DNA from: Reclinomonas americana ATCC 50394
Taxonomy: Eukaryota
Length of the DNA: 33,876 nucleotides
NCBI GenBank assembly: GCA_048213135.1
Contig: PS015092.1
Location: forward strand, 100,838 to 134,713
Reading direction: 5' to 3'
The notes beneath the pieces are model-generated. The model did not search any database. It had not been told where the DNA came from and saw only the letters and a list, made by a program, of their open reading frames with translations. A program made the position numbers and the translations under genes. Each line of letters begins with the position of its first letter. Position 1 is the first letter of the stretch. Positions 1,376 to 33,876 of this stretch are shown piece by piece.

Positions 1376-1609
1376 GGATGTTAATTTCTTTCTGCCCGCG
1401 TGCTGGCACAGTCGACGTCGCCAGAGTTCACAGCACACTCCATTGTTCAAAAATCGCTGCCGACAGCACGAGGAGGATGAAAAAGAGTGTCGCTCGTGGG
1501 GCTTGTTCAGCAAGACTCGCGGCGACCGCCACAGTTGAGCTGGTAGGCGTTGCATGAAACAGGACAGACAATAATCGATCACGGCGCCCCCCAACTCCTC
1601 CGACACGCC

Positions 1610-10900: not shown

Positions 10901-11954
10901 GAAGGCGACGTGGACTATCGATGCCCTGTGCGGTTCACTCTTACTCCCAAGGTAAGGATATAATCGATGCTGTACTTGTGCTCTCCACATGAATGTCTCG
11001 AGGCTCACTCCTTGTTTGTACACGTATGCATATATGTGTGTGTGCAGCACTTGCTCGCCACTTATGTTAGGCGGTGTGCGCCCGATCCAATCGCTCAAGG
11101 CGATTGGTCAGTTCAATCCCCTCCTGTTTTGGTCCCTGCGCTACCACCCTGTCGGTCTCCGCCACTTGCTGGCATTGCCGGCAGCGGCGTTCAGTTGTCG
11201 CCGCGGTCCCTCTCCAGCTCTGACGGGGGCAGTGGCTCATTGGTACCACCACCACCACATGCACGTGCCCCACCACCACCATCACCGCCACCGCCACCGC
11301 CACCACCACCACCACCACCACCACCACCACGTGCAGCACCTCAATCTCGCTCGCGGTGGGCTCCAGACCTTGCCGACGATCATCGAGCGTCCCGAGTTGC
11401 ACGCGACTCTGCATCGGCCGCCGCTGGCGCATCACCGCCGTTTCCCGTGTCGAGCAGCGCGGACTCTGATTCGGTACATCCCCTTGCAATCAGTCGTCAA
11501 ATACGTGGATACATTTCGAGTCGTGAGGCGAGGAAGGCGGGGATGTCGAGGGAAGATGTTGCGTTTGCAGACTTCATAAGCAATCGATACTCGAGCGCGC
11601 GTTGATGGTGTATGCTAACACATACGTGAACGGATTCACCGGCTGATCGTTTAGGTGGCCAAAGCTGTGGCTTCGCAGCGCAAGGTGCGAAAGAAGCGCC
11701 GCCTCAGCGAGAAGGGCGCAGGACCTCGGCTCAGCATGTCGTCGGATATGGACTTCATGGATGCCATGTCTGGCACGCCAATCCCACTTAGAGACGACCC
11801 GCCCAGCAGGAAGCGGCGGCGGGTTGCCGGCAATAGGCCGTTAGCCGCGAAGGTCACCGACGAGACTTTGCATCAAGTTGCTGATGCCGAATGGAGCGAC
11901 GGAGAGGTTGAGGGCCGCCTTAATATGCTTTGCGAGCAACCTCGAAAACGGTAG
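4798..11954 (+). CDS. Mutator/MULE-type DDE transposase, about 19 exons, with acidic N-terminus, C2H2-like fingers, WRKY/GCM1-like finger, SWIM-like finger and a Pro-rich/basic tail
   Basis: After splicing: CPVDNCDHVFKDEDVLLRH and a second C..C..H..H region; FSSFEEFEAFK; YLCSR...GFCLAQMLV...YYPAHTFH; catalytic GIAVDATH (D 7606), LMSDGA (D 8428), RLCYFH (CxxH 8491-8502), DTDNGSEAVFRVFK (E 9016), YLDGK..GRPDRLL; CLPC..SCFRFPCPHV (9863-9916). All junctions traced kept frame to TAG 11952-11954. The 5' and 3' exons are less certain than the core; one intron spans gap 7711-7730. Confidence 0.85.
4939..4992. repeat. (GT)n microsatellite in predicted intron 1 of the MULE gene
   Basis: Direct read; lies between donor GTGAGT 4846 and acceptor CAG 5055-5057. 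Confidence 0.95.
5431..5493 (+). repeat. (GAG)n/(GAA)n coding trinucleotide repeat (poly-Glu)
   Basis: Direct read; in frame in the acidic N-terminal exon. Confidence 0.95.
7688..7925. repeat. (CT)n microsatellite/low complexity containing a 20-N gap, intronic
   Basis: Direct read; lies between the DATH exon and the YKIKLVML exon. Confidence 0.9.
9106..9220. repeat. (GA)n-rich intronic tract
   Basis: Direct read; inside the predicted intron at about 9057-9290. Confidence 0.9.
11245..11329 (+). repeat. (CCA/CCG)n coding repeat (poly-Pro)
   Basis: Direct read; acceptor CAG 11045-11047 puts it in the Pro frame. Confidence 0.85.
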
Positions 11955-13149: not shown

Positions 13150-14530
13150 NNNNNNNNNNNNNNNNNNNNTGATGGCAGTGAGCGTTTCTGACCACTTAGC
13201 GGATATGAAGCATATAGGAGGCAAAAAGCACACGCGCCCACGCCAAGCTGCGAGCGAAGCGAGCAGCGGGGCGTCAGGGCGCACCCCAACTCAAAGAGTG
13301 AACCGAGTGACCTGTGCAGCCATAGTCCTCCCCTCATCACCCCTCCTACAGGATACACATCATGCATATATGCGCGCGGTGGGGCAGTAGGCGTGCATGC
13401 TTGTGGGTCAGAAAATTTGCACTCTCAAACGGGGCGAGGAATGAGTGCACAGTCGCGACGTGCGCACAGCGGTGGCACGTGTGTGGGAAGAGACGATGTG
13501 GTGCGTGGTGGGTCGCCGACGACGAGTGGGGCGTGGTGTGTGTCTGCAGGGTGCTCCGACAACTCATCGTGTCCCCGAAAAGACCCACAATGTTCCGCTC
13601 ATCGCGCGTGTGCATATAAGCGGTTCGCCTGGCGGCAGTCGGCCCATCGTCACGCCGCTCGGCTCATCAGGTGCGAAGCAGATGCACTGTCTCGCCCCCC
13701 TCCTCCCACCCCGACTCACCGTCATGCTCCATCCTGCAGGTCTTCACGTTCCACGCAACCCTCACTCTCACTCTCAATCACGCTTGCACTCATGCTCCAT
13801 GAGCGCCCGCAAGAACATGAGACTCGCTGCGCTCTCTGCGCAGCAATTCATGCGCAAGACGCACTGCAAAATGGATGGAAAAAGAAAACACGCAAGAGAG
13901 AGAGAGAGAGAGAAGACACGTGGCACTCGTGACGATGCGCACATTTCGCACAATCATTGCGCGCGCGCGCGAAATAAGGGTTTGCCATTCGCTCGGCGGC
14001 AAAATTTGCCATCACGCGACGAGCGGTGTCACCCCGGTCGCTTGGCGTGTGATGCGAGACCGCTCTGTGGCGCACGCGTGCCATCCGCGTGTGTCAAACA
14101 CACAGTGGTGCGAGTTGACACCTGAATTCAGTCCTTCCACAGCAAAAAATGCCGTAGTGACTGTGGTTTTGCTTCACACATTTCTCCGGTAATTTTGTAC
14201 TGTTGCACTGTACAGCATGTTTTTGGGTCGCAATCACCCAGAGAAAGCTCTTTTCAGTGCGCCAGGTGTGTCGCGAAGTGGACTAGAGGGAGTTGCTTTG
14301 CGGCGTCACCAGCACCAGCATACGCCCACAGCGAAGTGCTTGCGTAAGTGACTTCGGCGATTTTCGCTGCCCGTTCGGTCAATGAACACTTAGCGCACAC
14401 CGGGTCGACAGCGGTGAGAGATAGAGGAGGAAGGAGACAGAGAGAGGGGGAGGAAGGGGAGGGAGAGGAGCGCGCGTGAGAGAGAACAGATGAAGAGAGA
14501 AGCCGTGACGATAGATCCCGCGAACGGACG

Positions 14531-14536
<6 letters not shown>

Positions 14537-14608
<72 letters not shown>

Positions 14609-14758
14609 GAGGAGGAGGAGGAGGAGGAGGAGGAGGAGGTAGGTAGGTAGGTAGGAGGAGGAGGAGGAGGAGAGAGGAGAGAGGAGAGGAGGAGGAGGAG
14701 GAGGAGGAGGAGGAGGAGGTAGGTAGGTAGGTAGGAGGTAGGAGGTAGGAGGAGGAGG
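14537..14758. repeat. Compound microsatellite (GA)n-(GAG)n-(GTAG)n
   Basis: Direct read; ends at gap 14759-14887. Confidence 0.95.
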
Positions 14759-14887
14759 NNNNNNNNNNNNNNNNNNNNNNNNNNNNNNNNNNNNNNNNNN
14801 NNNNNNNNNNNNNNNNNNNNNNNNNNNNNNNNNNNNNNNNNNNNNNNNNNNNNNNNNNNNNNNNNNNNNNNNNNNNNNNNNNNNNNN

Positions 14888-17800
14888 CCGGTATGCGCGA
14901 CTCGGCAGCAAACCAGTGACAGTGGCGGTTACTGTCTGCGGGGAACTCCCTGTAAACGGACCCGCAGGCGACGTGCTTGACATGACGATGACGCCAGTCG
15001 CAAACATGGAGTCCAGTGACACACGAAATACGAATGTCACAGCCGCACTGTCGTTTGGGTCCACAGAACCAGCCAGAATGACGGTGTCAAGTGCTGTCAG
15101 TGTAGCACTGCTTGTCGTCACAGTTGGAAGCGCTCTAGTCGTGAAGGTGCCTGAAGACGAACATGTCGGCACCGCATCACCGGTCACAGTTGCACAGATT
15201 CGCCAGCGGAATGTGGTTGAAGGGGTCAGGCCAGTTATTGTTCCGCTGCTCACCGTCACTAACGCACTGCCAATGAGGGGCATGGCTTCGACGGCCGGCT
15301 GCGTAACCATAGAGCCACTGGTGAACGAGGAATCAGCGAAGGACGTCACTTGAAAGACAACAGCCGACACGATGTTGTTGTTGGGTGCAACTGAAGCTGT
15401 CATGGCAACAGTAGTGGCCGTGGATGTTGGTGTGATCGGTGCGGGTGTGATGCCACTTATCGAGGCAGCAGCACCGATCCGTCCAACGAAAGACAATAGT
15501 GATCCATGTACAACCGTCATCCCCGCATCGTTGCTTGCAGCAGTTCGATAAAAGTACGTTCTGCCAGGAAGTGCACTCACATCAGCGCTGACTGGAGTCG
15601 CTGATGATCCGCTGACAGTTGGCGGCGTGGCGGTGGTCGACGTGAATGTTGTTGGTCCCTGAATTCGCCGGATTCTCGTGTTGCCGACGTCACCGACGAA
15701 CCATGAGTCGGACGCAGCGTGGTATGCAACATGCGGGGCACTGCTCGAAAATCGCGCCACTGACGCCGCACCGTCAACAGCGGTTCCTGTTGTGCCACAG
15801 GTGCCAGCGAAAGTGCTCATGATCTTGCTTACAGGGTCGTATTTTCTGTGCCACCACCAATCAGTGCGAAGTCTGAATGCATGCATGGTTCGCCAGCATT
15901 CGAAACTCTAAACCACAAGGACTCACCGAATACAACCTCCATTTGCTGTGGATGACGTCCCGAAATACAGAACCCCGCCGCCATCCACCGCGGAGAATTC
16001 TCCGTCGAAACTCACAGCTTGACCAAGAGTATCCAAGTTCTGGTTTACGGCAGACGAAATTGTGAGATCCACCGTACGCGTCACTGTGTTGTATCGTTTT
16101 AAAGTAGTGGTGCTACCAATGCTCGAGTTGAAATAGACGAATGTGTCGCTGGGGTCAATTGCCAACTGAGTGGTTGACGGTGATGGGGTACTACCACTCC
16201 CGGAGGCTGCAGAAATTGTAGCTCCAGGAATCGTGAGCTGTTGAACCGCAGTTTTCCAGCCTCCAATGAACAGGATGGAGCCATCGCTGCGCATCGCAGC
16301 TCCGCTGGAGTAATCCACCAGTACCGCAGCACTGCCGGTCCCGCTTGGTGCAGACGAGGTACACGCACTGGTCGACGTGCCCGCGAACGTGCTGACAGTG
16401 GTAGAGGCAACAGATACTCGGCGCACCGCGCAGTAACTTCTAGACGTCCCACTGACGATGAAGAGATCGCCAGTTGGTGGGTGCACTGCGAGGCCAGCAA
16501 TGTTCTGGAACGATGCGCTCGCTCCCACGCCATCTGCAGTTCCTGCTGTTGTACTGCCAACAAAAGTAGATGCAACACCGGCAGATGTCACTCGCAAGAT
16601 GCCCCTATGAACGCTGTTTGCCATGTACAGATTGCCCGACGCATCGGCCACAAGCCCCGCCTGGGTCCCCGGTGTGACGCTTGTGGCAAACGTGCTCACC
16701 ACTGGTTCACCGACCTCGAACCACACGCTGGTTGAGGATGCTTCATCGTTCGCATTGACAGTTCCATTCACCGTGGTGGTTGATGTCGAAGTGCCGACTG
16801 CCGCACCGGTGGCCACCGACGGCAATATTTGCGTGTAGAATGTCACAATGCCACCATACTGCGCCGCAGACACGCCAGTGATTCGAATCACCACACGGAA
16901 TCCGTGAGTTGTCATGCCCGCGAGGCCAGTCACAGCGCAACTCAGTGAAATACTGTTTGCGCCAGTGTATGGACCAGCTGGACTCACAGTTGTGCAAGTT
17001 TGCACACCAGAGGCCAATGTCACATCAGTTGAGTACTCGAACACAACACTGTCAAGCGGGACCGCGTTGGGATTCAGTGAGGCGCGAAGAGTGGCCGTGC
17101 TCTGCTGCACATCAGTCGCCGAGAGTGTGTTCCACAGTGGCATTGTCAGCGTGGTGAACGACACTGGTGTGCTGTTGACGGTGCCCGCTGCAGTGACGAG
17201 TACCGCCTGAAACCAATACTGTGTTGAAGGGCTGAGACCGGTGGCGGTGCCAGACACAGCAATGATAGAAGTTCCCGTATATGGAGCAGCTGGTGACACC
17301 GCAGTGATAGTCGTCACACCCGTCACAAGTGTAGGGTCTGTGGAGGAAAACTGAAAAGTCAACGACGTAACACTGTCTCCGCTCGGCGGCAACACAGTTG
17401 CATTGAGCACCGCAGACAAGGGGCTGATGCTGGACGACAAAACACCGACTGTGCCGGCAGACAAAGTGCCTCCCAGAAGCGGTGGCGCGAGCTCCGAAGA
17501 AGTTAGGCGTGCTCGAAAGTACCACTTCGTGCTACCATTGAGTCCAGTCACTGTTGCGGACACCGTGATGTTGCCTGACCCAGCTTGCGTTCCAGCCGGC
17601 GTGACTGTGGACCACAACTGCACGTCGGTACTGAAGCTGCCGTCCGTCGAGTAATCAAAGGCAACTGTAACCGCGGCGCTCTCGTTGGGGTTCATGGTCA
17701 CAGAAACCGTCACCGATGACGATGTGCTGGACGTCACGCTCGTTGAAACGATAACTGGGAGCAAAGCCGTCGTCGCATTGGCCATTGAGCTGGTCACGGA

Positions 17801-19679
17801 CTGACTGATGTCACTCGCCGGTACTGCCGTGCAGCGGAAGTAGTAGGTGGTGTTGGACGTCAGTCCCGAGGCTGTGGCGGAGACGGTGGTGCTCATCGTG
17901 GCTGAGGTGACGGAGTTGGAGGCCGTAAGCGTCTGCAAGATGGGTGACATACTCATGGCCGTCGAGAGTGTCACAGTTACTGCACAGGCGCCGCCGTTGT
18001 TGGTGATTATCGGACAACCCAGTGTGAGTGTCAAAGAGGTGTTTGTGGCAGTCGGCGCTCCCAGAGTTGGTAGATTGAGGGTGGTGGCCAGCTGTGCTGA
18101 ACCACGAGTCGCAGTGGCTCCATTGTTGTTGGTCGCTGCCGCTTGAAATGCGTAGGTGGTCGATGGCGAGAGACCAGAGATGGTGGCGGAAACGGACACT
18201 GGCGTGGTGCCCGTCAAGTTGGACGGCGACGCACTTGCCACTGAAAACGTGGTCGGATAGGAGATCCGACGGAGGCCTGTGAGGTGCGAGGCGAATGAGA
18301 ATGCAACACATTGCAGCAAGGAGAAGAAAATCGCTGCAGTTACCCTTGGCATCAGCCACCAGCAGCGAGTTGGATTGGCTGTTGAACACGATGCCACTTG
18401 TGCTGACCAGGGTGAAGCGTGCAACGCTACCCGCGCCATCAGTGTTGCCACTACCTGAATCACAACGTCCAGCGTATGCCGTCACGCTGCCAGAGGGCGT
18501 AACTCGGCGGATGCAGGAGTTGCCAGCGTCCACCACAAACAGGTTGCCGCTGGCGTCCATTGTCAAGCCGCCGAGAGCAGAAAATGTTGCCGCTGCAGTG
18601 CCCACTCCATCTGCTCTGCCAGAATTGATACTGCTACCTGCTATGGTCGATACAGTCGTCGTGCTGAGAACGATTTTCGACACAGCTGGGGCAAGCGCAC
18701 TCGTAGTCACAAACGCTTCTTGGCCGGTCGATCCAATGACGATCCCGAAACATGACACGCTGGAAGTGAGAGTCGAAACAGTGGCAGTAGTCGTCTGAAC
18801 AGCACGTATCCTACTTGAATCGCAAGCGTACAATGTAGAGCCGTCGGTGGTGATGGCAAGTCCATACAATGAGCTGAACCGAGCAGCGGATCCAACGCCG
18901 TTCGTCGAACCGGATGACCCTGCGGTTCCAGCAAAGGTCACGACTCCGCCAGCCGTCACCTGTGGGAGTGCAGCGACAACGTTAATTTACTGTCTCTCAT
19001 CAACAATCATGTCGAAGAGGAACCACGCAACTCGTCGAATGGTTTGGTTTCCTCTGTCAGCCACAAAATAGTCACCGGAAGGCGCATGAACGGCAATGCC
19101 AACAGGACTCTTGAACCGGGCGGCAGGGCCAATTCCATCTGTAGATCCTGAAGTGCCGTCCGTTCCAGCCACGAGTGACAACATGCCAGCTGTACTCAAG
19201 CGGCGTATGACGTTCCCGTTCGTGGATGTCATGACGAGATTCCCGGAGGCATCGTACGTCATGTGGCCACTCGTGCCGACACTTGCCGCCAACTGTTCTG
19301 TGCTCACTTGTAGCTCGGCGTACTCGAAGAATCCGTTCGTGGCCGTGGATGCTCCATTGGGGTTGACGGAGGCGTTGAGAACGACACTGCTCTGCGTCGG
19401 TGACGAGGCGGCACTCGTGCTGACGATGGGGTCTATCTGGCCGCACACGGGGGCAGCCAAGACGGCCAGTGCTGCGATGACGACGATGATGACGAGAGGA
19501 GAGATGGTGTTGGGTAAAGGTTGATGCAGTGGGCGCTCGCTGCGGTGGTGGTGGCGGTGTACGTGCGTACACGACGACACAAAACGGCGCCTCCACATTG
19601 ATGTTGCACATGGCGGCCTCTGTGCAGCGGTCGTCGCTAGCAACTCTCCTTGGGCGTGCGTGTGCGCCGCCCTCTGCAT
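14888..19679 (-). CDS. Large secreted/surface Ser/Thr-rich protein with two NHL-repeat beta-propellers and at least 8 FN3-like domains; 3' end lost in a gap
   Basis: Start at 19679 or 19598. Hydrophobic leader LVIIVVIAALAVLAAPVCG|Q. NHL blades such as AGTDGTSGSTDGIGPAARFKSPVGIAV..YFVADRGNQTIRR and MDASGNLFVVDAGNSCIRRVTP. FN3-like units LNASVNPNG..FEY..VSATISGLSPSTTYAF. Introns 18960-19031, 18277-18343 and 15846-15926 join four ORFs in frame. Confidence 0.85.
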
Positions 19680-20524
19680 GTGTGCGGAACAGATGCAGAC
19701 GAGTCAGGTGAGCAGCTCTTGCACGCGAGCGAGTGATGCAGTGATATGATAACGAACGAGCGCTCACCATTTGGGAGTGCGGTTCACGAACGTGCTGCAC
19801 ACGAGCGAGGTGTGATTCGGAGGAGAGAGAGGGGGAGGGAGAGCGAGAGCGAGAGAGAGAGACGGAGAGTGGGGATGCTTGGCGATGTCACGGAATTGAT
19901 TGGGGGACGCAATAAATGATTGAGTCCAATTCGGCGTCAAATTGCAGTCAAGCACACGGCTGGACACGCATAGGTCGACGCTGTATGATACGCGCACAAG
20001 CGATGGCACTCGCGCACTGCATCCAACACAGCGTGTAATGTGAACCACGAGTACATGCATGCATGTTTTCACGAATTCACTCCTCTTTCAATATTGGTAA
20101 ATTCGGCAACCACCCACAACAATGACATACAGAAAACAGCAGCTATCATGATAACAGTGTAAGTTCCGAAACGTGAGCCTAATTGCAGATCTTGGCGGCA
20201 GCAGAAATCCGAATTCGAACAAAACCGCTGACACAAGTTCGCGACGTCGCCCTCTCTTTTGCTGTGCTAGCACAAACTTTTCATCGCATGGCGTCCGCAT
20301 CGCTCATTTTCAAAGTCATTTCGCAGCGCACAGCGCCACGTGCAAGAGGTAGCGCGAGGTTGCATGAGGCCACCAAATAGGACACCTNNNNNNNNNNNNN
20401 NNNNNNNNNNNNNNNNNNNNNNNNNNNNNNNNNNNNNNNNNNNNNNNNNNNNNNNNNNNNNNNNNNNNNNNNNNNNNNNGCGAGAAAAGGTCGAGAAAGG
20501 GAAGATGACTGTTGGAGAAGTAAT

Positions 20525-20673
20525 TCGTCGGCAAGGGAAAAACAACAAAACACTTCATTCACCACATTCCAATAATGCGACAAAAGTCCACAAATCCCTT
20601 GCCGACGATGACCATTGGCACATTTGTGGACATTTGTCGCATCATTGGAATGTGGTGAATGAAGTGTTTTGTT
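20525..20673. repeat. Interlocked inverted repeats: 52-bp arms (20544-20595 / 20622-20673, 2 mismatches) and 14-bp arms (20525-20538 / 20595-20608, perfect)
   Basis: AACAAAACACTTCATTCACCACATTCCAATAATGCGACAAAAGTCCACAAAT is the reverse complement, with 2 mismatches, of ATTTGTGGACATTTGTCGCATCATTGGAATGTGGTGAATGAAGTGTTTTGTT. TCGTCGGCAAGGGA is the exact reverse complement of TCCCTTGCCGACGA. Confidence 0.92.
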
Positions 20674-21329
20674 TTTTCACGGCTCATGTCAAGGACCACT
20701 GACTTGCTTCCTTCGAATTCTCGGATCTGGACCCGGCTTTCACAGCGTACAGGATTTCCATGTGTTCGGATTCGGCAAGTCCGGTTGCCAGAGGCATTTT
20801 GGTTTGCCGCCCCAAGGTATCACGGGTGGCCAGGGCAAGCCAGTGTGCCACTTTGTCCGGGTACCGCTGTGGCCATCATACATGCCACTGGCAACTGTGC
20901 TCACCACTCGCATCCCTGCTACCCACCCTACCGGTACACCCAGCGCTCTCTATACCATGTGCACACCGCATCCCCAGTAGGTCTCGGGGTGCATGTGTGG
21001 CGCAAACAGAAGATGGAAGTAAAAAGAGAGTGTTCAATGTACTCGAGCTCATGGCAACTTGAACGATGTTGATGCCAGCCTGGAAAGCTCAGCAGACGCC
21101 GGAGGCTCCGAGCTGAAGAGCCTCTGAGAGAGGTCGACTCACGCAGCCAGGACGATCCGCAGCGCGGCCTGGTGTGGGCAAGTGATTAGCTCTTCTGCAC
21201 TCATGAAACACTGTCACCACTGCAGAGTTTCTTCGACACGCACCATCACAACGCTAGCGCTACCGCTGCAGTCAGCATCAGCGAAGCGCCTGCCACTGCA
21301 GCCCCAGTCGCGCTCTGGAAAGAAAACAT

Positions 21330-21508
21330 TGTGAGTGACATGTGCGACATCTTGGTACCGAAAGCGCTCCACACAGCAGCCTCCTCACCGTCACACACAC
21401 CGACTGTCGTGACCGCATACATACATGATCAATCGCCTATGCTGCGCCTGACACCGTAGCCGCAGCCAGACCTGAGCATGCAAAGGATGTGAGTGACATG
21501 TGCGACAT
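21330..21508 (+). repeat. 21-bp exact direct repeat (21330-21350, 21488-21508)
   Basis: TGTGAGTGACATGTGCGACAT occurs twice, 158 bp apart. Confidence 0.9.
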
Positions 21509-21936
21509 TGTGCAAGCACCGCCCACCACAGACACCGCAGAGCGCTACCCCCCTCACCTTCACAGACTGTACGCGTCACAACCGCGCGCAGGCGGGACCA
21601 ATCAGCTTCCTGAACGATGCGTCAGCAAGCCGACAAGAGTGGAGGAGAGACCGCACATTTTTGTTTTGAGCAACATTCCCAGCGCGCGAAACGTAGAAAA
21701 CGCCGCCGCACACTGTTTACAAACCACTCCATGCGCCAGTCGCAGACCGACTGTGTTAGTGACACACCTGCAGGTCACGCTGGCACTGTGCGCGTGCGCG
21801 TGGGAAGCGGAGCCATCATTCTTCGCGCGCGCGCGCGCACGAAGAACAACGAAGACACAATTTGACGCTGCTCGACAATCGTGCTCGCGCGCCCACGATA
21901 TCCTGGGATATCTCTTCTTCCTTTCAAGAGCGGAGT

Positions 21937-24900
21937 ATGGAGGAGCAGCACTCGGTATGTAGACATGTACACCTGCACGCCAACGAGTGCACGAGAGAGA
22001 GCGTTGCATGGCGGCGTATCTGCGTTGTGCCGGCGCATGCGCAGTGCGCTGGCGCAGATGCGCCTGAGTGAGTCCACTCTCGCACATGGTCGTTTCTGCT
22101 GTGTGTGTCCTTGTGTTTTCAAACAGTTGGGAACCAACCCTCTCTTTGAGAAGCCGTTTCCATCGATGTACTGGGCTGGTGTACCTGTACTGGGCTGTGT
22201 GGTGTATTCCTTCCAACTGGTTGCTCATTTTGGCTGCTTTGTTTTTCATCGCTCCTCCTCTCGTGCAGGAGACACCGGCGTCGGCTGCTGATTTCGAACG
22301 CCGGATGCAGGCCATTGAAGCGGCCATGCGAACTCAGCTGAAGGCGTTGATGCAAGAGTTCAAAAACACGATGTCGCCACAGACTGATCATGATGAGGCG
22401 GCAGCTGGCGCTCGTGCTGCGCCGACGACGCCAATGCAACCTCGCGACACCGCGCACACCATGCACGGCGTCAGCCGTGCACAAACGGTTCCTCCGATCG
22501 CTGCGCATGCCAGCGCGACGACTGCCGATATCGATACAGTCTCTCGCCCGCCTCCGAAGCCACCGGCTCCAGCGAGGCAAGCGTCGACGGTCACGACACC
22601 ACCGGCACCCATGGCCACACGCGGCGGGCTTGACGAGCACGTGCACGATCGCGACGTCCGCGCCGCCGTCACGGAGGGCGTCGGCGTCACCACCTCCAGC
22701 CCATTCTCGTTCACTGCAACCAACACGACACGTCGAGCACGACTGCGCTTCAACGATATCGATGAGGAGGAGGAGGAGGACGATGAGGAGAAGGAAGACG
22801 ATGAGGAGGAGGAAGACGATGAGGAGGAGGTCGTCGACAAGAAGAAGAAGAAGAAGGAGGAGGTGGTGACCGCTCCAGGTACACAAGTGCGCGCCGCCAA
22901 AGCGTCCACACCTGCTGTCGGTATCGACATCCACCTTAACATTGCCCAAGCTGAGGTGCGTTGCGTTTATTCTATCCCAGCTGCAGCTCCTGTTGCCAGC
23001 TGTACAGCTGTGGTCTCACGAATTTTACCTTTCTGATGAGAGCAGAGCATTGCAACCAAAGTGGCACAGAAGCTCTGGGACAATTGCAACAGACGACACA
23101 ACAAGAGCGGCCTGGATAGGTGTGTGCTGGATGCGTTGTCCGCGTTGCACGAGAATCAAAACCTGGAGCAAACAGAACGCGCCGCTGTTGTAAGCCTTGG
23201 TTGCGTCTTCTCTGCTGCTCCATCTGTGTGTGATGACGCCGTTGCTCTCGATAATTGCTGACATATACGTTTGACTGTATCATTGATCGTGATGACAGCT
23301 GCATGCTTTCGAGTGGCCGAGTGTGAGCATCAGCTGCTCGAAGCGCTGTTCAATGAGCTCACTGGAGGAGCCTGCAAGGCCGCCGTTTCGACAGTTTTCT
23401 CGGAGGCCAGACAACGAACTGGAGGCGGCGTAATTGCAGCAATCATTGAAGCCAACCGCGAGTTCAGTGCAAGGCTTCGCAAGTCTGCTGGCCGTCCGAC
23501 GAGATTCGAACGGCTGTACAAGGAGTTCCAGAGCCATCTCGCCACGGATCCGAGTGCTCTTGCGAGTGCCGAAACGACGCTGCGTGCGCCGAAGCCGCGG
23601 AGACGTAGGAAAAAGACCTCTGACACTGGTGAGGACGTTGTGTGAACGATTAGAGGCCGGGCCATTGTCGACGCGACTGATGAAATCGCTGCAGGTACAG
23701 CTGCTGCGGTGGCGGTTACCACCACCACGACTGCGACAACAACGACAGTGCCATCGTCATTGGCACCACCGCCGCCCCCACCGCCGCCAGCCGCAGAACC
23801 TCCCGGACAGCTGGCAGCTGTTCCTGCCATCGGCCCGGCGGGGGTGAGCGCCAGCCCAATTGCAAGCGCTGCTGGTACCACGGTACCGGTTAACTCGAAT
23901 GCCGGTGCCGCGACAAACTCCGACGTCGAAGCTGAAGTCATCATGGACACAGCACCCGAGGCCGACGAGGACGACGCCGTCGCCGACATGGACGACAGCC
24001 TGCCATTCAGCACTTTGCCTGCTGCTGCTCCTGGCGCGGTGGAAATCGAAAAGCTGGTGAGTGTTGCTTGCAGTTGCCTGCTGTTTGGGTGTGGTGGTAA
24101 CACTACATGTCGTCGATTGCAGGGACTTCGTCAGGTACCATACAGTGTTCTGGCGAAGGAAGCGAAGGACAGACAGACGGCAGCGGCGAATGGTACGTTA
24201 GCTGCTCAGACGTACTCAGAGCGCGATTTCCAACTTGCGGTGCGCATCATGCATTTCTCGTTGTTGCTTGTTCTCCTCCGCACGAATGCAAGCGAGCTGA
24301 TCGTGATGGTGACTGGGTTTCTGTGTACCATGTCGTGTGTGTGTGTGTACACGTGTGTGTGTGTGTGTGTGTGTGTGTTGCAACTTTGCACGTATTGCAT
24401 CTACAGGCAGCAAGTCAGAAAGGGACCGCTACGCTGCTGAAGAGCGGCATACTTCAGCAATTTGGTGGTCAGCTACACGATGATTCACTGTTGCGTTTCA
24501 ACACACACTGTAGACGCCCCATAGCAGCTTGATGTACATATATGAAGAGTTGTTTGTGTTGTCCGCGCGTGGGCGGTTGAGTGCCTTTAATTAACAGTAA
24601 TTACCCGTATCTCTCCTCTGCTCGCAAGGTATGACGCGCTGCAGCAGGCTGATGCGTGCGCTCGTAGCCTTTGCGCACTAGTTAGCGCCCAGCAGTTGTC
24701 GAATCAGTCCGTTCTGCTCCCCGATGCAAACCATCGACACGATCGGGGAGACGATCTGGCATCAGGCTACCGACTCGTTGTCAACCAGACTATCAGCTTT
24801 GCGATACTCGCAATCGGTGAGTGGTGGTGCATGCACGTGCGAGTGGCGCTCCGTTGTGATGATGCTTTGCTTAATTTTCACGACCAGAGCGACCTCTGGC

Positions 24901-26748
24901 GACACTTTTTGAGAAGGAGGTGACGGAAAGCGATATTGTTGCTGCTTTTGCCAGCGTTCCCGACGGCGCATTTGCGTACTTGGCCCACGGACCGCTCGCT
25001 TGCCTCACATACATGCACCTGACCGAGTTGCGTGGCACGCTGCGCGCTTATCCTGATCAGTCGTTGTGCAACCTCTGCTCTACATTTGGCTCACATCAAG
25101 TCAATGTGCACCAACGCAGGCAATACGACGTGTCACAGAACACACTCATGTGGCGATTATGCGCAACATTGTCTTTCCTGCACATCGCGGTCAACCACTG
25201 GTCACACTTTTTTCCTGAGTTCTTCGGCACCATGTTCTGCGACCGCACGTCGGCTCGTACTACACGTGGTGGTAGTTCTTCGAAGGCATCAAAGTCAGCT
25301 GCTGCAGCTGGATCCAGCAGTGGGCGTTCGCGCATGCAAGAGATGGCGCTCATCTGTGGTGAGTCAACGATGTCCCAGCAGGCTCGTCGAGTGGCGTGGT
25401 GCTGCTGCGTTTGTTGTGCATGTCGATCAACTTGCTCATGAAGTCTGGTGCCATGACGCAGAACGGCATGCTCCAATCAGCGAAAACGCTCACGGCCTCA
25501 TCAGCCGTTCTGTATCAGCAGGATCAACACACCATGCTACCGAGTGGGCGAGAATCGGCATACAACAGCAGGCGTTCAAGAAGACGTCAACCCGCGGCAA
25601 AAGTCGGAGCTCGGCAAAGGACGACACGCCGGCGCCATTGTGCACCCCACCGCCCCCGTTTTCCAGCGCGCAGGTTGTCAAAGGCAAGCTGGTGCATGCG
25701 GTGGCTGGAGCCATCGCATTTGCACGAGGTGAAACGGATCCGAAGTCATCGTTGCGTTCGTGTTCAGCGTGTCGACAATGGCCACACTTCACGCGTTCGG
25801 CAATGCTCACCCACATGGACGTGTGTGCTTTGCGCGCGCAGCAATCTCCCTCCTGCGGAACTCAATCACGACAGTATCGCGCGCGACATCTTTCTTGAAG
25901 CCATTGTCCACTAGTTGCGCCCATGCTCGTTGTTGTTGCCGTGAGGATGCTGTACATGTCGCTCGTATCGCAACTCACTCCGTGTCGTTCATATGCGCAG
26001 CATGATCTCCACGCTCCACGAGCACGGGACGACCATCGTCTACGATGATGGTCGCCGCAACGCGAAGGGCGAAGCTGAGGAATTGCGTCTGCCGCTGTTG
26101 ACGGCGTTGCATGCACGCGGATGGCCATCGCTGACGTCCGGAGCGTGGCTGACAAAGGACCTGTTCCCACTTTTCGACGCCGCTGTGAAATCCGGCGAAA
26201 ATATCGCCGATGTCAAGCTGCCGACTGGGACGGCAGTGCCCGTCCCTGAGTTCATCTACACCACCGCCATTAACACGTTGCCGCAATCTGCTGCGGATAA
26301 GGATCGTCGCCCTGTCAACGGGCTGCCGCGCGCCCTACGCGAGTCGCTGCAGGGACTCTTCGTTGCACACGGCAAGAATATCCGCACTAGCCTCCACAAC
26401 GAGCCAGCTAAAGTGATGCAGACCATTGTCAACACTTGGTCGCACATCTGGGAGGCGAGCCGCAACGCCGCACGCCACCCGATCCTTGGACCACCGCCTC
26501 CGGAGAAGACAGCGAAGCGGCAGCGATCACAAGCCGGCGGCGCATCGAGTTCCGTGCCTGCGGCAAGTGGTGGTGGAATTCGAGGCCATGGCGACTCAAG
26601 TGGCACATCGCCTTCTCCTCCACGGAAAAGGCAGAAACCTGCGCATGCGGCTGCGGGTAAGAAAGGCAACAAGGGCAAGAAGGCCGAGCAGCAGGAGCCA
26701 GTGAGCTCCGGAAGCGACGACGAAGGCGAGATGGACTATGACAGCTAG
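21937..26748 (+). CDS. Hypothetical multi-exon protein, possibly nuclear; candidate accessory ORF of the adjacent CACTA-type element
   Basis: MEEQHS|GTATGT..CAG|ETPASAADFERRMQAIEAAMR...; Pro/Thr/Ala-rich, acidic and poly-Lys segments; basic NLS-like PKPRRRRKK and PPRKRQKP; several globular-looking exons; last exon ORF 25993-26748. No family recognised, and it could be more than one gene. Confidence 0.6.
24335..24377. repeat. (GT)n intronic microsatellite
   Basis: Direct read. Confidence 0.9.
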
Positions 26749-26844
26749 GAGGAGATGCACCTGGGAAGTAGTAAACCGAAGAGCTTTGCATTATTCATTG
26801 GTCATCAAGCATCCCCACTGAGGCCACAGTGCTACTTATGTCAC

Positions 26845-28452
26845 TTACAGTAGCCGAGAAAAGACAAACGTATTATCAGCAGACAATGTTCCGTCTGGAA
26901 GCCCAGCCTCCACCTCGCGCGCCCTGACGTCACGCGCCCACCGTGTGCAGCAAGCTGAGAGCTCAACAACCCCTGTTACACGAGCAAGGGAGACGAGCGA
27001 TAGGCGGCCAGATTTCCAGTACAGCGCACCGGCGCACATCTCGTCCACGAGCAGCTTGGGTTGGTGTGGAGGGTGTTTGAATAGTGGCTCCATCGCGTCG
27101 ACAAGTGCGAAGAAGCGCTCGCAGTCTGGAGGACACAATGACGAGAACGACCACCGGTACACGTTGTCGGCCGACAGCGGTCGTGGAAGCGCTTCGACAA
27201 AGAGCCGAACCACGCCGACCCGAAGACCGCCGAGCTCTCCTTGCGCATGCGGTGCGCACATCTTGTCAGCGAAGGCAAGACAGTGACCTTCTTTCACCTG
27301 CAGGCAGTGCGAATACAATGTCTGCTGTTATATTTACATGTTGCCGTATGTATGTGGCGCACCACGCATGGCTTGCTCACCTCTCGATAACAGACCACGC
27401 ATCGGGCGAAAACCCGTAGACCAAGTACGGCGCCTCGGTCTCCGAGACACACGCGCAATGGATGGAGACCGTCATAGCCAACGAGCGCTTCCAATCGTGC
27501 CCATCCTACGTCAATATCCTCGAACGATACAAAGTTTGGCTGCTCTTCTGCCGCAGGCAATCGTTGTTGTTGATACACCTCATGGCGATTTACCTTTCCC
27601 TGCTCAACAGAACGAGGCAAAATGTAAGTTTTCACACCAGCGCTCGGGCGAGTCATGTGTTTCCATTACTTACCGGAGGCAGCGGCCGCATCTCGCATGG
27701 CAGCGTGACGGAGGTCACGAGCGCAAACTGTGTCACAAGTCGCCGGAGGGCGTGAAATCGGACTGCTTGTTTCGCCTGCAGGAGAAGGCGAATGTGAGAC
27801 GGAGGAGGAGAAGAGACTGCGTGCATGTCAATCACTCAGGAGGCGCCGCCCACACCGTCTGCCTCCCATTGGTGTTGCACCTGACAATCTTTTTCAGCTT
27901 CTTGATTGTGCTTTCGAACGGAAAACACATGTAGTTCCTGCGCTCCACCTGTTAGGAAATGCAAAGACGCAGAGGTAGCACTCAGCACATGCACCTGAGC
28001 GACCCGAACCGCTCGATGAGATAAGGGAAGTGTTCCGAGACGTGTGATTTGGGTGTGAAGTGGTTGGAGGCACTGGCATTGTAAGCAACCTCCTGGTGCT
28101 GAGCGACGGCGCAGACAAGAAACTGAATCTGTGAGACAGCAGACACGATCAGCAAGGCAAAGATATGTCACGAACACCGCAGTAAACGTTCGAGCACTAT
28201 ACTCAGATCCATACCGCGCGCGAGTGCATGCGCATCAACGCACCTTCCGCAATTCCTTTCTGCTGATTGAACGCATCAGCAGAAGTCGCAGCAATCGGAC
28301 GTGGCATGTCCACGCCTTAATGGCATGGTCGAGCGACTTCAAAGCGTCGTCCTTGTTCGAGACGCGAAGCTTCTCACGACTGGCCTCGATGAGTGGTGCG
28401 AGAATCACCAAAGACGTCAGCATGAACGTCATTTTCTGGTGAGTTGTCAGGC

Positions 28453-28494
<42 letters not shown>

Positions 28495-31400
28495 CACACA
28501 CACACGCACACACACACACAGAGAGAGAGAGAAAGTTCAGTAATAATGAGATAAAATGCTGGCATAATTGTTGTGCAGCAGCGCAAGAGAACCTTGTGCG
28601 AGTCATTTCAGCGGCGCCCTTCTTCAACTCTGCCGGCAGCGAGTCAGGTTCCAAGACGCACAGCATACGACGGTACGTGTTGAGTCGAGACGACAACGCC
28701 GGCGTGTAGAAACCTGCACCGTAGCAACTCTGCAGCTTCGTGAGGAATCGCTTGAAGTGCTCAGCCGCATCGCCGCTGAACTGCTGGTGCTGCACGCAGG
28801 AGACATTATTGGACGTGGTGAGAGACCGGTCGGCGGCACCGAAGCACTAGTACTCGGGCAAACCACACACCATGAGGTCTACCACGAGGTTGGCCGTCAG
28901 CGACCGCTCACCGTCGCTAATGCCAGGGGCGTACCAGAATGCTGTGCACGGAAACAAAAAGAGGCAGGTTGCACAATTCAGCCCACGCAGCGGCGGAGTC
29001 CGTGTCGCACCTGTCGACGACGATGAATGCAACAAACCTGAGCGGCGAGAGTAGCCGTAGTACTTGCGAATCGACTCTGGACTATTCTCGATGGTCCGCA
29101 AGAACGCCCACTCCTCCTCAAACCTGTGCTCGCGTAACTTGGCGCCTGCAAAATCTCCATTCCCGTCGTAGGTGAGGAGGAGACGCATCGTGTCGTCATT
29201 TGCCACACTGCATGTGGCGCAGAATGCCTCGGTGAATGTGGTGGGCGCGCGAAGGCCCGCCGTCTGATTAATGGCAACCATATCCCCCGAGTAAGCGTGG
29301 AAAACGGCGTACACCTTGCGCTTCTCGTCCACGGCCGTCACGTACATTTCGACTCCTGTGGCATGTGCGCCAGAGCGCAGTGAGACTTAACGTAGGCCAT
29401 CACACAAGCGTCAAACCCTCTCTCACCCTCACTCAGAGTCGCCAAATCTTCGTTCTGCGCTCGGAACACGCAATCCATGCCCACGCTCGGCTTGTCAATG
29501 TCTACCGCACTCACAATACTTGCTACGTGGATTGTGCATATCCGGCTGTCGGAACGGTGTGCCCCGTCGAACTCTTCGAGGGTATACGCAAACTCGTACG
29601 AACTGTCACTCTTCAGACGAGTCTCGAATCCGTCGGAATGAGCCCGCACGTGGACGATGATGATGGAGGGATCTGCGGAGTGCACGAGATAGGGGAGAGA
29701 ACTGCAGTGAATGCGACGTCGGCAAAATTCTTCCCTCGAGACGCACACATCCGTACCAAGAACATCAACGCCCTTGTGATCGCGCAGGTACTCGACGCAT
29801 TCATACCAAGCCCGCCCACACTCCGGTCCGGCGAACAACTGGCCGGGCCCACCGGCTGGACGGTTACGATGCACTTGTTCTGCGGCAGCAATGACGCATG
29901 AGCACCGTCACTACTGCATGAGTGGCAACGATCGGACGGCAGGCAAACGAGACTTTTCAGGATTGCGGCAGAGAGCTCCTCGGAGGCCATCACGCTCCGA
30001 ATCCACGCGACCAGACTCGACCAAGGTATGTCTGGTCCACGATCGCCTATCGGTCGAATGTTGCGAATCTGCACAGGGTGGAGCACCAACCAAGCGCGAT
30101 AAGTGAGCGCGACAGGGAGCAACGCCACCCACACAGTAGCAAACAACAATGATGACCCGCCTCCAAGTAACCGTGGGTGGACAACAGTTTTTCGAGCCGA
30201 GCAACCAGCGTCTGCAGCGTGGTGGGCATGAAACGCCTCTCTTTCTTCTTGTACTTCTCTCCGTTATGGAGAGCGAGGCCCGTCTTGTCGATAAGCCGCC
30301 TATGGAAAAGTTCGATGAATGAACGATATGCTGCGTGTGTCATCTGCACGTGTCTCGGCATTAGCGCAGGATGAGGCGTGAAGTTGTCAATGCAAGCATA
30401 CCACAGTTACGAAACATGGTGATGAAGCGTGTTGGCCAGAATCTCAGCGTTGTACAGCAGCTCCGGACGCCGATGAAGCACAGACTTCATATCCGGGCAG
30501 AAAATCTGCGGAGTTGTTTGCAGAGCGTGAATCACGTATGTCGATCAAACAACGCGAGGCGCCGCGTCTAAACAACACAACGCAACACCGACGGGGACGT
30601 TGAATGCAAGCAGACGCTGCTCATCAAAAGCGCACTTGCGAAGCTTCGGGAACAGGCGAGAGAACTCGTGTCGGCCCCGATTGAACCACACAGAGACATG
30701 CTGCGGCTGGGCGGGTAGCAAACCAGGCGCCTGCTCATGTTCCTCGGCGACGGCAGGGGCTTGAATAGCGTCATCTGGCATTGCAGAGGTGAGGATACTG
30801 AGAACAGTGAAGCGGTTACGGTGATGGCAGTACGAAACGCACCACCAATTGCCTCAACCTCCATTCCCACTGGACCGGCGTCACCTTGCTCATCATCATC
30901 GCTCTCGTCCTCCACATAATCATCCTCCTCCATTTCTTCCTCTTCGCCTTCGTCGCCGAACATGTCTTGGATGAGAGCGGCGAGATCCTCCTCTTCCTTG
31001 TCGAGTTGCGGGGGGTCGGGATCGTCATCGGAGAGGTCGTCGCTCCCTCCAGCTGATGAGGCCTCCTCAAAGTTCTTGAGCTCGCCGTCCTCCTCATCAC
31101 TCGAGGATTGACCGTCATGGTCACCGCCCGCGTCGAATACGACATTCACGGGCGCCTCCACCAACGGTTGCTGCTGCATCATGGCGACTTGACCTGCAGC
31201 CGGGACGACCGGGACCAGAATGCCTCCGACAAGTTGAGGTGGCAGCTGCATGGCGTCTCCAACGCCGCCCCCACCGGCACCGTCGACGTCTGCGTGCCCT
31301 TCACCATCCTCGGGCTCCTCTCGCTTGCGCTTCCTACCGCCACGATTTGGGGGTGGCCCCGCCACGCGCAAACGATCAGCTCGGACATGTTGCTGAATCC

Positions 31401-31955
31401 AGTGAGCGATGAGCGCTTCTTGGCCCTCGCCTGCGGCACCGACGGCGAAAACGTGCTCCTCCTCAAGGCCTGCACAGCGCAAAAGTGAGTTGCTGCCATG
31501 TAGGATGGACGTGGATAACAACGAGAGTGCGGGCCCGCACACATCGCCGTGGCGCACCTGGAAGATCGCGGTGGTCGACATGAGGACACACAAAGCTCGA
31601 CTTGTCAGCGGTCAGCGCGCGAGGCCAGTGAGCGCAGTGATTGACCATGTGACTTCGGAGACTGGCTTTGCCGCTGTCGACGAAGAAGCGCCGACACAGT
31701 GGGCAGACCACTTTCGGTTTGCCATCGGCTTCATCAAGGACGAATGCGGATGGCACGTGGCCCTCTTCCTGCATTTGCAACGGCGTCGACGTCGCTCAGC
31801 TGGAGTCTTGCAAAGCTGCACTCAAAAGTGAGCTCGACGAGGCACTGAGCAACGCGTACGTTCACCCCCACATAGACGAATCGTCTCTCCAGTCTCGCTC
31901 ACTCTCTCTCTCACTCTCTCCCTCTCCTCTCTCTCATTCTCTCTCTCTCACTCTT

Positions 31956-31999
<44 letters not shown>

Positions 32000-32309
32000 G
32001 GCTACTCAGTCATTCTTGGCCCCACTGCGATCGCCAACATCGCGCGATCGTCACGTTCTCTCTGTCACTTCTCTCTCTCTCTCTGCGTGTCTCACGCGTA
32101 CGTGCACATGATCTGTCTCCGGATCCGTGTATTGCGTGCTTACCTCGGCGTGCTGGCGCCGTGAGAGAAGTGTGCACACGCGCCGCGCACTGATGGTTGT
32201 CGTGTCAACGTTAACAAGGAGGAGGACGAGATGACGACGTCAACTTCTTTCAATGGCGAGTTCAGCAAGCAGCTGACGGTGCAGGAAGTGCTCACCGTCG
32301 ACGAGGCAT
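26845..32309 (-). CDS. CACTA/EnSpm-like (CMC superfamily) DDE transposase, intron-rich, with an N-terminal C2H2/BED-like finger and acidic tract
   Basis: After splicing: VVCPLCRRFFVDSGKASLRSHMVNH; IIVHVRAHSDGFET (D 29632-29634); GMDCVFRAQNEDLATLSEGV; HAYSGDMVAINQTAGL..FCATC (D 29282-29284, CxxC); VVDLM|HQQFSG (DxxH, 28877/28787); FTPKSHVSEHFPYLIERFGSLR|NYMCFPFESTIKKLKKIV (E 27913-27915). The motif order matches CMC transposases. Stop at 26845; the start exon (ATG 32309) is tentative. Confidence 0.82.
28455..28531. repeat. (CA)n(GA)n microsatellite in an intron of the CACTA-type transposase
   Basis: Direct read. Confidence 0.9.
31902..31995. repeat. (CT)n microsatellite, probably intronic in the 5' part of the CACTA-type transposase
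   Basis: Direct read. Confidence 0.9.
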
Positions 32310-33876
32310 GCCGTCTTGACTCTGTTGATGGGTGTCTCTGAGAGGGGCAGCGCAGGTTGCCATGGGCAAAGGCGGTTGCCACTGAATGGCAACTGTGCGT
32401 GCCACTAAATCGACATGTGTCGGTGTGGTTTCTCTGCCAGCGACCATGTGAGACACATGGTGGGGGTGGTGCCTGAGAAGTTTGGAGTGGAAAGTCGCGC
32501 TCTTCGAGGAGGAAAAGCGCGTACACTGATCGGTCGGTGGCAACGGAATTTGCCCGCGAGCGAAATATGACAAAATCTATTTGCTGTGTTTGCTTTGTTT
32601 GCCTGGCTTATGGCCTTTTCCCGTATTTGCTGAGCCGAGTGCAATCGCAGAAAACGCTATGCGTCTATGCAAGTGCGTCAAATCCACTGGTCACCACTCT
32701 TATATATGCGTGGAAGATCGCAGCGNNNNNNNNNNNNNNNNNNNNTGGCTATGTATGCGCACACTGCACACGCATGTACACGCAATAGTGACAGCGCTCA
32801 ACCATGTGCGAGTGAGTGTGAGAGTCACAACGCACAACCACAAACAGACGAACGCGTAAGCCGCTTTCGGAAAGCGGGCAGCAAACACCGATGCGAAATC
32901 ACAGGTACTCGCCTCCGTGTGGCGACAGTGTGTGAGTCTCTCACTGAGTGCCACGCGCGACTGTGCACTAGGTGCGCAAAAAAGGTTGCACTCACAAGAA
33001 AACCCGTGGTGCATGTGGAAGAAAGAAAAGAGTGGTGGACTCGGAGGGTGTCAAAGGGTTGAGGGTCTGCACAACGACTATGAAGCTCACTGCCTGGCTA
33101 CAGAGCACGAAGCAGAAGGAGAGATTACTTGCAACTCCACTAGAGTGTATCAGATCGAGGAGATATCGAAGCAGCAGTGAATGCATAAAACACTCGCTGC
33201 TTCTGCGCGTGCACTTTCGAGAGGGATGACTTGCACAATAAGTGCGGATACATGCACGTCTCTCACGGTCGCAGTGTGTGTGCCACATGGCCATGGTGAA
33301 CTCACCGCAAAAAAATAAAAATAAACTGCTCCAGCTCGCTGCAATTTTTCGCGGAAAACAGAACTTTCTTTGACTGCACTGCGAGATGCCACTTCTCCCG
33401 CTTTGTGTTTGATCTCGCGGCAACACATTGCAGCGAGAGGTGCTGTGTGCACAGAGAAACCGCAGCGAAACAAAGCGTTTGGGTGGCGACTCCGAGTTCT
33501 CGCATGGGCGTACGCGTCGCCAGATTAGGCTAATATCGAACGCCATGATGCCACTCAGAGTGGTCACTGCGCGACACACGCTGTTTAGGCAGAAGCGTCT
33601 ACTCACACTCTCCACAGTGCAGTTGCTCTTTCTGTGCCTGCACCAGTGGAAGTTGTGTGCGCTTGATTTTCACTGCCAGATATCGAACCCTTGAATTTGA
33701 ATTCGTCAGCACTCCCGCCTTCGCTTCCGCCATAGCGACTGGCAGACACATGCACCACCGAACACCGTTTCCTGTCTGCAGCGTCGCCCAAACGGTGAGC
33801 GATGTCCGCGCGACTGCCGTGGCACATCAATACTCCGAAAATGGCAAACGATAATTAGTTGATCGCAGTTGCCGCT

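Follow-up and report, generated by a model that had tools for sequence, protein, structure and literature searches.

A large orphan gene tail-to-tail with a transposase-like gene in Reclinomonas americana: a possible two-gene DNA transposon

Two large multi-exon genes converge in the 33,876-nucleotide stretch of Reclinomonas americana DNA analysed here (the window), with only 96 nt between their stop codons. One of them, referred to here as the orphan, has no detectable relative in the collections searched. Its neighbour carries a string of motifs resembling that of the CMC/CMCT transposases. Our tentative proposal is that the pair makes up the two genes of one DNA transposon of the CMC/CMCT kind, at least 10 kb long, a reading that we consider plausible but short of probable. 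That the genes move together, that the orphan helps in transposition, and all steps of the mechanism described below are what we infer from the arrangement and content of the two genes.

The orphan is a real coding gene. It occupies positions 21937 to 26748 of the + strand (about 4.8 kb), where open frames are found at 22068–23033 (322 codons), 23262–23642 (127 codons), 23646–24437 (264 codons), 24875–25438 (188 codons) and 25945–26745 (267 codons), linked by GTGAGT-type donors and CAG acceptors. With a codon model trained without the orphan, the exon chain on the + strand scores 95.9 (8 exons, 832 aa), compared to 24.7 on the antisense strand, while 20 mononucleotide shuffles of the region gave a mean of 7.8 and a maximum of 15.7. 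The multi-exon open reading frame described in the earlier, sequence-only reading is therefore borne out. In seven of the eight exon pieces the open + frame scores best on codons among all six frames, the eighth (25519–25731) being ambiguous. The TAG stop is at 26746–26748. The ATG at 21937 is one among several candidate starts, and the start and the internal exon borders are provisional.

It is worth considering whether the region might consist of two shorter genes, or of a decaying pseudogene whose frames have been bridged by exon chaining. The model does shift with the chaining parameters, between 8 and 15 exons and between 889 and 1433 aa; both the stretch 24057–24630 and the piece 25519–25731 are ambiguous; and a per-codon bonus generates chains of around 900 aa even in shuffled sequence. 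Without the bonus, however, the chain scores 95.9–140, whereas the shuffles stay at or below 15.7 and the antisense strand reaches about 24, and the terminal exon and stop are identical under every parameter setting. Together with the codon preference in seven of eight pieces, this makes a split gene or a pseudogene very improbable.

The features that had been read from the orphan sequence, namely a quoted peptide, an acidic tract and basic NLS-like tracts, could all be located. The acidic tract DEEEEEDDEE is followed by KKKKKK (22761–22856, +) and lies on a (GAG)n-type repeat. A basic NLS-like tract, KPRRRRKK, is at 23592–23615 (+). The last exon (26001–26748, +) contains the peptide LRLPLLTALHARGWPSLTSGAWLTKDLFPLFDAAV (26083–26187), the basic tracts PRKRQKP and GKKGNKGKK (26620–26682) and an acidic C-terminus. 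A hydrophobic, Cys/His-rich exon piece (6 Cys, 7 His) is found at 24893–25357 (+); no relatives of it were found and its fold is not predictable. AlphaFold2 run without an alignment generated unusable models of both the last exon (pLDDT 43.4) and the Cys/His-rich exon (pLDDT 41.7).

A range of searches was conducted for relatives of the orphan. None of seven frame pieces matched Pfam above any cut-off, and at E ≤ 0.1 only sub-threshold low-complexity matches were seen; there was no TET/JBP or other Pfam domain, and no transposase or integrase motif. HMMER, run with the last frame against 1,835,955,588 representatives, returned two matches, both tandem-repeat proteins. P0001 is an Ig-domain array. 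P0002 consists of a tandem repeat of 53 aa, matches 24 unrelated Pfam families as well, and aligns through a single repeat unit at 15 of 29 residues. As their scores add up many short stretches (15 and 8), both were rejected as spurious. A word-indexed search for longer relatives of an orphan exon found none among 7821 candidates, metagenome scans gave 289 and 114 pattern matches of which none was confirmed, and scans of viral contigs gave no match. The orphan status assigned to the gene at the outset thus stands across all of these collections. It is weak evidence of anything, since proteins of this organism seem to be absent from the databases: for a GNAT gene of the window, the proteins found are just 32% and 26% identical, with no self match.

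The neighbour is likewise a real coding region. It lies on the − strand at 26845–31795 and is predicted to encode around 1200–1300 aa in a chain of 14–17 exons, with the modelled ATG at 31774 and the TAA at 26847–26845. Its exon chain scores 113.5 against 21.8 for the antisense strand, using a codon model partly trained on the neighbour itself. Near its N-terminus is a zinc finger of the form C-x2-C-x12-H-x4-H (31637–31705, −), which gives a sub-threshold match to Pfam zf-C2H2_4 (E = 0.01; 16.9 bits, with the cut-off at 27). The protein also contains a basic NLS-like tract and an acidic tract.

The neighbour also carries a series of short motifs, assigned by reading and not by family alignment. 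In order, these are HSDGFET, the candidate first catalytic D (29620–29640, −); YSGDMVA, the candidate second D (29273–29293, −); CATC, a C(2)C motif past the second D (29210–29221, −); HVSEH, an H(3)H motif (28030–28044, −); and FPFES, the candidate catalytic E (27910–27924, −), which comes into frame only once spliced at ...GSLR|NYMCFPFES. In one spliced frame they run D, D, C(2)C, H(3)H, E, with CATC and HVSEH both between YSGDMVA and FPFES. This order is described as the signature of the EnSpm/CACTA–Mirage–Chapaev–Transib transposases (PMC12730594). The C(2)C and H(3)H motifs that mark CMC/CMCT membership, as read by eye, are both present in the neighbour, and the apparent match to the signature speaks for the two-gene element.

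None of 16 and none of 11 frame pieces matched a Pfam transposase family, and at E ≤ 10 the 11 neighbour pieces gave no relevant Pfam match. Transposase_21 did not match the neighbour, and no profile or sequence similarity to CMC/CMCT members was found. A word-indexed search for relatives of a neighbour exon found none among 1240 candidates, the ESM Atlas gave no usable match for a neighbour exon, and PDB sequence searches gave no matches in one case and a single noise match (E = 0.9) in the other. Since single-exon pieces were used as queries, this is a weak negative. No MULE match was seen in the neighbour, whereas the other transposase gene of the window has one. The earlier designation of the neighbour as a CACTA-type transposase is therefore upheld as far as the CMC/CMCT motif string goes, and finds no counterpart in profile or homology matches.

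The geometry of the pair is as had been proposed: the genes are convergent, and the distance from stop to stop is exactly 96 nt (26749–26844), between the TAG at 26746–26748 and the TAA at 26847–26845. On either side the pair is bounded by sequence devoid of coding signal, 2.2 kb on the left (19704–21936, including an N gap at 20388–20479 and a palindrome at about 20537–20680) and 2.1 kb on the right (31796–33876, to the window end). Exon-chain scores in these flanks are at most 7.6, which is noise level (shuffle maximum 13.9–15.7). A gap of about 2.4 kb separates the window's other convergent pair (stop of a modelled MULE-like gene at 11954, end of an FN3/NHL frame at 14390). A gap of 96 nt, compared to spacings of about 2.1–2.4 kb elsewhere in the window, favours the two-gene element, and such close pairing between non-coding flanks favours a single unit without proving it. 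Scans of the window with Rfam and for tRNAs found none.

A transposase-only element would need to have its end within 96 nt of the transposase stop. The spacer has no inverted-repeat partner to the right, with no CAC...GTG candidates and a best exact match of 9 nt, and this also counts for an element of two genes. The surroundings can be counted on the same side: the region is rich in transposons, with a second large and apparently intact MULE-like transposase gene 15 kb from the pair. The two genes have intact chains, short GT-AG introns of 36–327 nt and GC3 of 0.64 and 0.62, all of which argues weakly in the same direction; the likeness in GC3 does not discriminate, as presumed host genes in the window span 0.50–0.79.

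The ends of the proposed element, and those of an element with the transposase gene alone, were sought, with matches at chance level throughout. No terminal inverted repeats (TIRs), target-site duplications (TSDs), flank similarity or subterminal repeats were found in the window. The best inverted match between left and right is 16/18 nt (21228/33024), with no target-site duplication and a start other than CA, and CAC...GTG pairs with a 2–5 nt duplication did not exceed 11/15 matches. No CACTA/TAGTG termini, TIR or 3-bp duplication were seen; one of the ends may fall within the N gap at 20388–20479 or outside the window. A gapped comparison of the flanks gave a best E of 0.093, and 10-mers recur at most twice within the two flanks, which have a single 12-mer in common. 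The palindrome at about 20537–20680 lacks a partner on the far side and was for that reason rejected as a terminal repeat. Long inverted repeats at 24313–24378 and 28456–28521 were rejected as intronic (GT)n/(CA)n microsatellites. A 65-nt direct repeat is confined to the left side. Neither gene has a further copy, even as a fragment, elsewhere in the window. The missing TIR and TSD, the single copy in the window and the want of a transposase profile match all count against the two-gene element.

These observations also bear on a different explanation, that the orphan is a lineage-restricted host gene, nuclear and largely disordered, which has come to lie by chance tail-to-tail with an immobile or domesticated transposase-derived gene, the 96-nt gap reflecting short or overlapping 3' ends. 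The absence from the window of TIRs, TSDs, flank similarity and subterminal repeats would be expected, as would the presence of each gene only once. The many introns and intact frames of both genes would be as expected under host selection, and the orphan status says little where the proteins of the organism are seemingly missing from databases. In compact eukaryotic genomes convergent genes are often separated by short gaps, which counts further against the two-gene element. Set against this are the gap of 96 nt where other spacings in the window are about 2.1–2.4 kb, the transposon-rich region, and the retention of all three candidate catalytic residues, D, D and E, which a domesticated gene need not keep. 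We regard a chance pairing with a host gene as possible, and as only a little less likely than the two-gene element.

A further explanation is that the orphan derives from a different mobile element than the neighbour, or from its remnant, the two having been inserted separately into a transposon island. The window does contain unrelated MULE-like and CMC-like genes within 34 kb, as well as assembly gaps and microsatellites. Genes carried by transposons also commonly lack relatives and any domain that can be recognised, as the orphan does. Nevertheless, no repeat boundary or sequence discontinuity is seen between the two genes, two complete frames 96 nt apart would have to be a coincidence, and the orphan has no transposase or integrase motif of its own. 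Separate insertions thus appear improbable.

If the two genes do belong to one element, we hypothesise that transcription of both starts towards its outer ends, runs inward and stops within the 96-nt spacer or on its far side. Cutting and rejoining of the element's ends would fall to the transposase-like protein, with its C2H2 finger, basic tract, D-D-E core and C(2)C and H(3)H motifs. The orphan protein, mostly low-complexity and helical, with its acidic tracts and three basic NLS-like tracts, could be a nuclear helper and the second protein of the element. It may load the transposase onto the ends or stabilise it there, or may counteract silencing, in the manner of TnpA for Spm. Taken to its full extent, the hypothesis makes the orphan protein, of around 900–1400 aa, a new helper or anti-silencing factor specific to its lineage, an intron-bearing eukaryote, and has its gene mobilised together with that of a highly divergent CMC-type transposase lying tail-to-tail with it; a convergent layout like that of MuDR would then have arisen independently in another superfamily, and overlapping 3' ends could feed antisense regulation. 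This fuller version we judge rather unlikely.

Were the genes shown to be co-mobile, the CMC superfamily would gain a convergent two-gene architecture from beyond the plants, animals and fungi, together with a new, unrelated accessory protein whose candidate roles are end binding, nuclear import and anti-silencing. The repeated recruitment of fast-evolving partners by DNA transposons would then have a further example. If they are not co-mobile, what is described here is an ordinary orphan gene adjoining a transposase-derived gene.

Several known systems invite comparison. In maize MuDR, the transposase gene mudrA and the helper gene mudrB are convergently transcribed. The pair described here resembles it in having tail-to-tail genes with a short spacer (96 nt) and a second gene that is lineage-restricted and without a known domain. 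It differs in that MuDR has a MULE transposase and long promoter-bearing TIRs, whereas the pair here has a CMC-like transposase and flanks without inverted similarity; the MuDR helper gene is also several times smaller than the orphan. VANC of the VANDAL MULEs is a fast-evolving, element-specific anti-silencing protein encoded next to the transposase. The likeness lies in an accessory protein beside a transposase, and the difference in the transposon superfamily. The sequence-only reading had seen in the pair a candidate for an undescribed system, which is an overstatement given that the convergent two-gene layout is that of MuDR. A second, fast-evolving protein is, in addition, standard in CACTA elements (PMC4158355, PMC1636069).

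In CACTA elements, transposition is described as normally supported by a second ORF whose function is unknown (PMC4158355). The candidate element would share with CACTA (En/Spm) its large size, its DDE transposase and a second protein that is poorly conserved (PMC4158355, PMC1636069). According to PMC1636069, conservation of these second proteins does not extend from one lineage to another, and an orphan without relatives fits the part. The same source describes them as typically co-oriented or alternatively spliced; the pair here, convergent and on opposite strands, differs in this from the TnpD-type plus ORF2/TnpA arrangement, which counts against the two-gene element. No similarity to Pfam Transposase_24 (TnpA) was found in seven orphan frame pieces, and the flanks hold no subterminal repeats for a TnpA-like binder. 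A protein of the ORF2/TnpA type would be expected to lie within the terminal repeats that hold its transposase; the orphan adjoins the neighbour at 96 nt, with no definable termini.

Fungal CMCT/KDZ transposons (EnSpm/Plavaka and other lineages) have captured TET/JBP dioxygenase genes, thought to be anti-silencing, and the order and orientation of these accessory genes are described as variable, with opposite orientation included (PMC12730594). The orphan differs from this cargo in having no TET/JBP domain. Since the kind of system is already known, from ORF2/TnpA of CACTA and mudrB of MuDR, the gain is incremental either way, and the two-gene element, if true, would be a variant of these known kinds.

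A real gene lies at 21937–26748 on the forward strand (hereafter the orphan), as the sequence-only reading had claimed in describing a multi-exon coding region there. Open frames of 322, 127, 264, 188 and 267 codons, with shifting phases, are connected by GTGAGT-like donors and CAG acceptors. An exon-chaining program was applied that scores codon log-odds, bars in-frame stops, allows GT-AG introns of 35–1200 nt and imposes an intron penalty, using a codon model trained exclusively on other genes. The forward strand gave a chain of 8 exons (832 aa) scoring 95.9, against 24.7 for the antisense strand and a mean of 7.8 (maximum 15.7) for 20 mononucleotide shuffles, and in 7 of the 8 exon pieces the open forward frame has the best codon score of all six; the gene is therefore real. 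With a per-codon bonus, long chains arise from shuffled sequence too, which limits the evidence to bonus-free scores. The exact exon structure is provisional, the model varying with parameters from 8 to 15 exons and from 889 to 1433 aa. Set beside these scores and this varying model, the view that the region is not one intact gene has a small chance of being right.

In the predicted protein, low-complexity stretches, either Pro/Ala/Thr-rich or acidic, are interspersed with more hydrophobic, helix-prone pieces. It carries three basic tracts, and these, the acidic tract and the peptide quoted in the earlier reading were all located. A nuclear protein could have such a composition, which tells little beyond that. 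Single-sequence AlphaFold2 gave helical, unreliable models (pLDDT 43.4 and 41.7). No relatives were detectable by HMMER, word-indexed, metagenome, viral or Pfam searches: the two HMMER matches, among 1.84 billion representatives, arose artefactually from tandem repeats within the target proteins, the word-indexed search for longer related proteins and the metagenome and viral scans returned none, and the Pfam matches were all sub-threshold and caused by the acidic tract.

The window has a G+C content of about 57%, plentiful (GT)n, (TC)n and (GAG)n repeats and several N gaps. It also contains an intronless GNAT-like gene duplicated in tandem (338–1375 and 1547–2638, forward strand; blocks 91–93% identical, at a spacing of about 1293 nt). 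Its closest relatives elsewhere bear acetyltransferase Pfam domains and are only 32% and 26% identical, with no self match. The searchable collections thus seem to lack proteins of the source organism, so that each null homology result for the orphan and its neighbour carries less weight.

The neighbour, at 26845–31795 on the reverse strand, is predicted to form a coherent chain of 14–17 exons and about 1200–1300 aa, terminating at a TAA. Its chain scored 113.5 against 21.8 for the antisense, with a codon model partly trained on the neighbour itself. It opens with a C-x2-C-x12-H-x4-H finger (31705–31637; Pfam zf-C2H2_4 only at E=0.01), followed by a basic stretch, GRKRKREE, and by a long acidic one. 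The motifs HSDGFET (29640–29620), YSGDMVA (29293–29273), CATC (29221–29210), HVSEH (28044–28030) and FPFES (27924–27910) are then read in order, and we take the contexts DGF, and PFE then K..LKK, to resemble CACTA transposases. The ordered motifs agree with the motif part of the CMC/CMCT signature, D...D...C(2)C...H(3)H...E, as given in PMC12730594. The neighbour is thus probably a CMC/CMCT-type transposase or a derivative. The earlier CACTA-type assignment stands on this ordered motif string, but not on database matches: no Pfam family exceeded threshold on its frame pieces (0 of 9 in one run, 0 of 11 in another), and the word-indexed search, Atlas and PDB yielded no relatives.

The orphan TAG (26746–26748) and the neighbour TAA (26847–26845) are separated by exactly 96 nt, as previously claimed, whereas the outer flanks of the pair (2.2 and 2.1 kb) show no coding signal; this geometry counts for one unit. 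Genes converge at just one other place in the window, across a gap of about 2.4 kb. A transposase-only element would need its end inside the 96-nt spacer, and no partner for the spacer was found on the far side of the transposase-like gene, which favours a two-gene unit. Another large, apparently intact transposase gene nearby was also counted for one unit. We tentatively favour a two-gene CMC-like element in which the orphan would be a putative helper.

CMC/CMCT transposons mostly have 5'-CA...TG-3' ends and 2–5 bp duplications, according to PMC12730594. Inverted repeats between the left (19.7–21.95 kb) and right (31.7–33.9 kb) flanks were at chance level (best 16/18 nt, without duplication), CAC...GTG pairs with 2–5 nt duplications matched at most 11/15, and the best gapped flank comparison had E 0.093. 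No recurring k-mers occur in the flanks, neither gene has a second copy within the window, and no similarity was found between the two proteins. These absences count against one mobile unit. A serious if lesser possibility is that the orphan belongs to the host and lies next to a transposase gene that is immobile or domesticated, against which the spacing of the genes must be set. Element termini could fall in the N gap at 20388–20479 or past the window end, 2.1 kb beyond the transposase-like gene start. That the orphan is part of another element we regard as improbable. Other readings of the pair take up the remaining likelihood.

Several further features were observed. Directly after the N gap at 20388–20479, about 1.25 kb upstream of the orphan ATG, lies a near-perfect palindrome (about 20537–20680; arms about 58 nt, loop about 25 nt). 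Folded as DNA, it reaches –60.2 kcal/mol (z = –11.6). Its arm sequence has no further occurrence within the window, and a foldback element or a gap-edge assembly artefact could explain it. A 65-nt direct repeat (21286–21350 and 21444–21508, 72% identical) lies about 0.5 kb upstream of the ATG, on the left side only, the 20-nt GTGAGTGACATGTGCGACAT terminating both copies. The region's top 'inverted repeats' are microsatellite artefacts: (GT)n at 24335–24378 in an orphan intron and (CA)n at 28455–28520 in an intron of the opposite-strand neighbour, and hence a GT/TG repeat on the sense strand of each.

A second large, intron-rich transposase-like gene (5161–11954, forward strand; 13–17 exons, about 1270–1570 aa) combines C2H2-like fingers with an acidic (GAG)n tract and a Cys/His stretch, CLPC...CPH, that is presumably SWIM-like; on 8140–8598 it matches Pfam MULE weakly (E=1.6e-4, 22.5 bits, cut-off 27.6). 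No convergent partner adjoins it, the reverse-strand chain score of 24.7 being noise. At 14390–19703 (reverse strand), uninterrupted frames of 852, 505, 391 and 238 codons with Thr/Ser/Ala-rich repeats match Pfam fn3/purple-acid-phosphatase-N-like and NHL; this is probably a single giant gene for a surface-type protein, and its interruptions are an N gap and runs of (GAG)n/(AG)n.

The proposed interpretation of the gene pair is partly supported, but its core, a shared mobile element, stays a hypothesis. In maize MuDR, mudrA and mudrB are convergent, and this layout is the nearest architectural parallel. The suggestion of an undescribed system is overstated, since CACTA elements with two proteins are standard, the second having an unknown and non-conserved sequence, according to PMC4158355 and PMC1636069. 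Accessory genes in variable orientation occur on fungal CMCT and other transposons, according to PMC12730594. Given these cases, a partner protein here, if the idea is right, would be a variation on a known kind.
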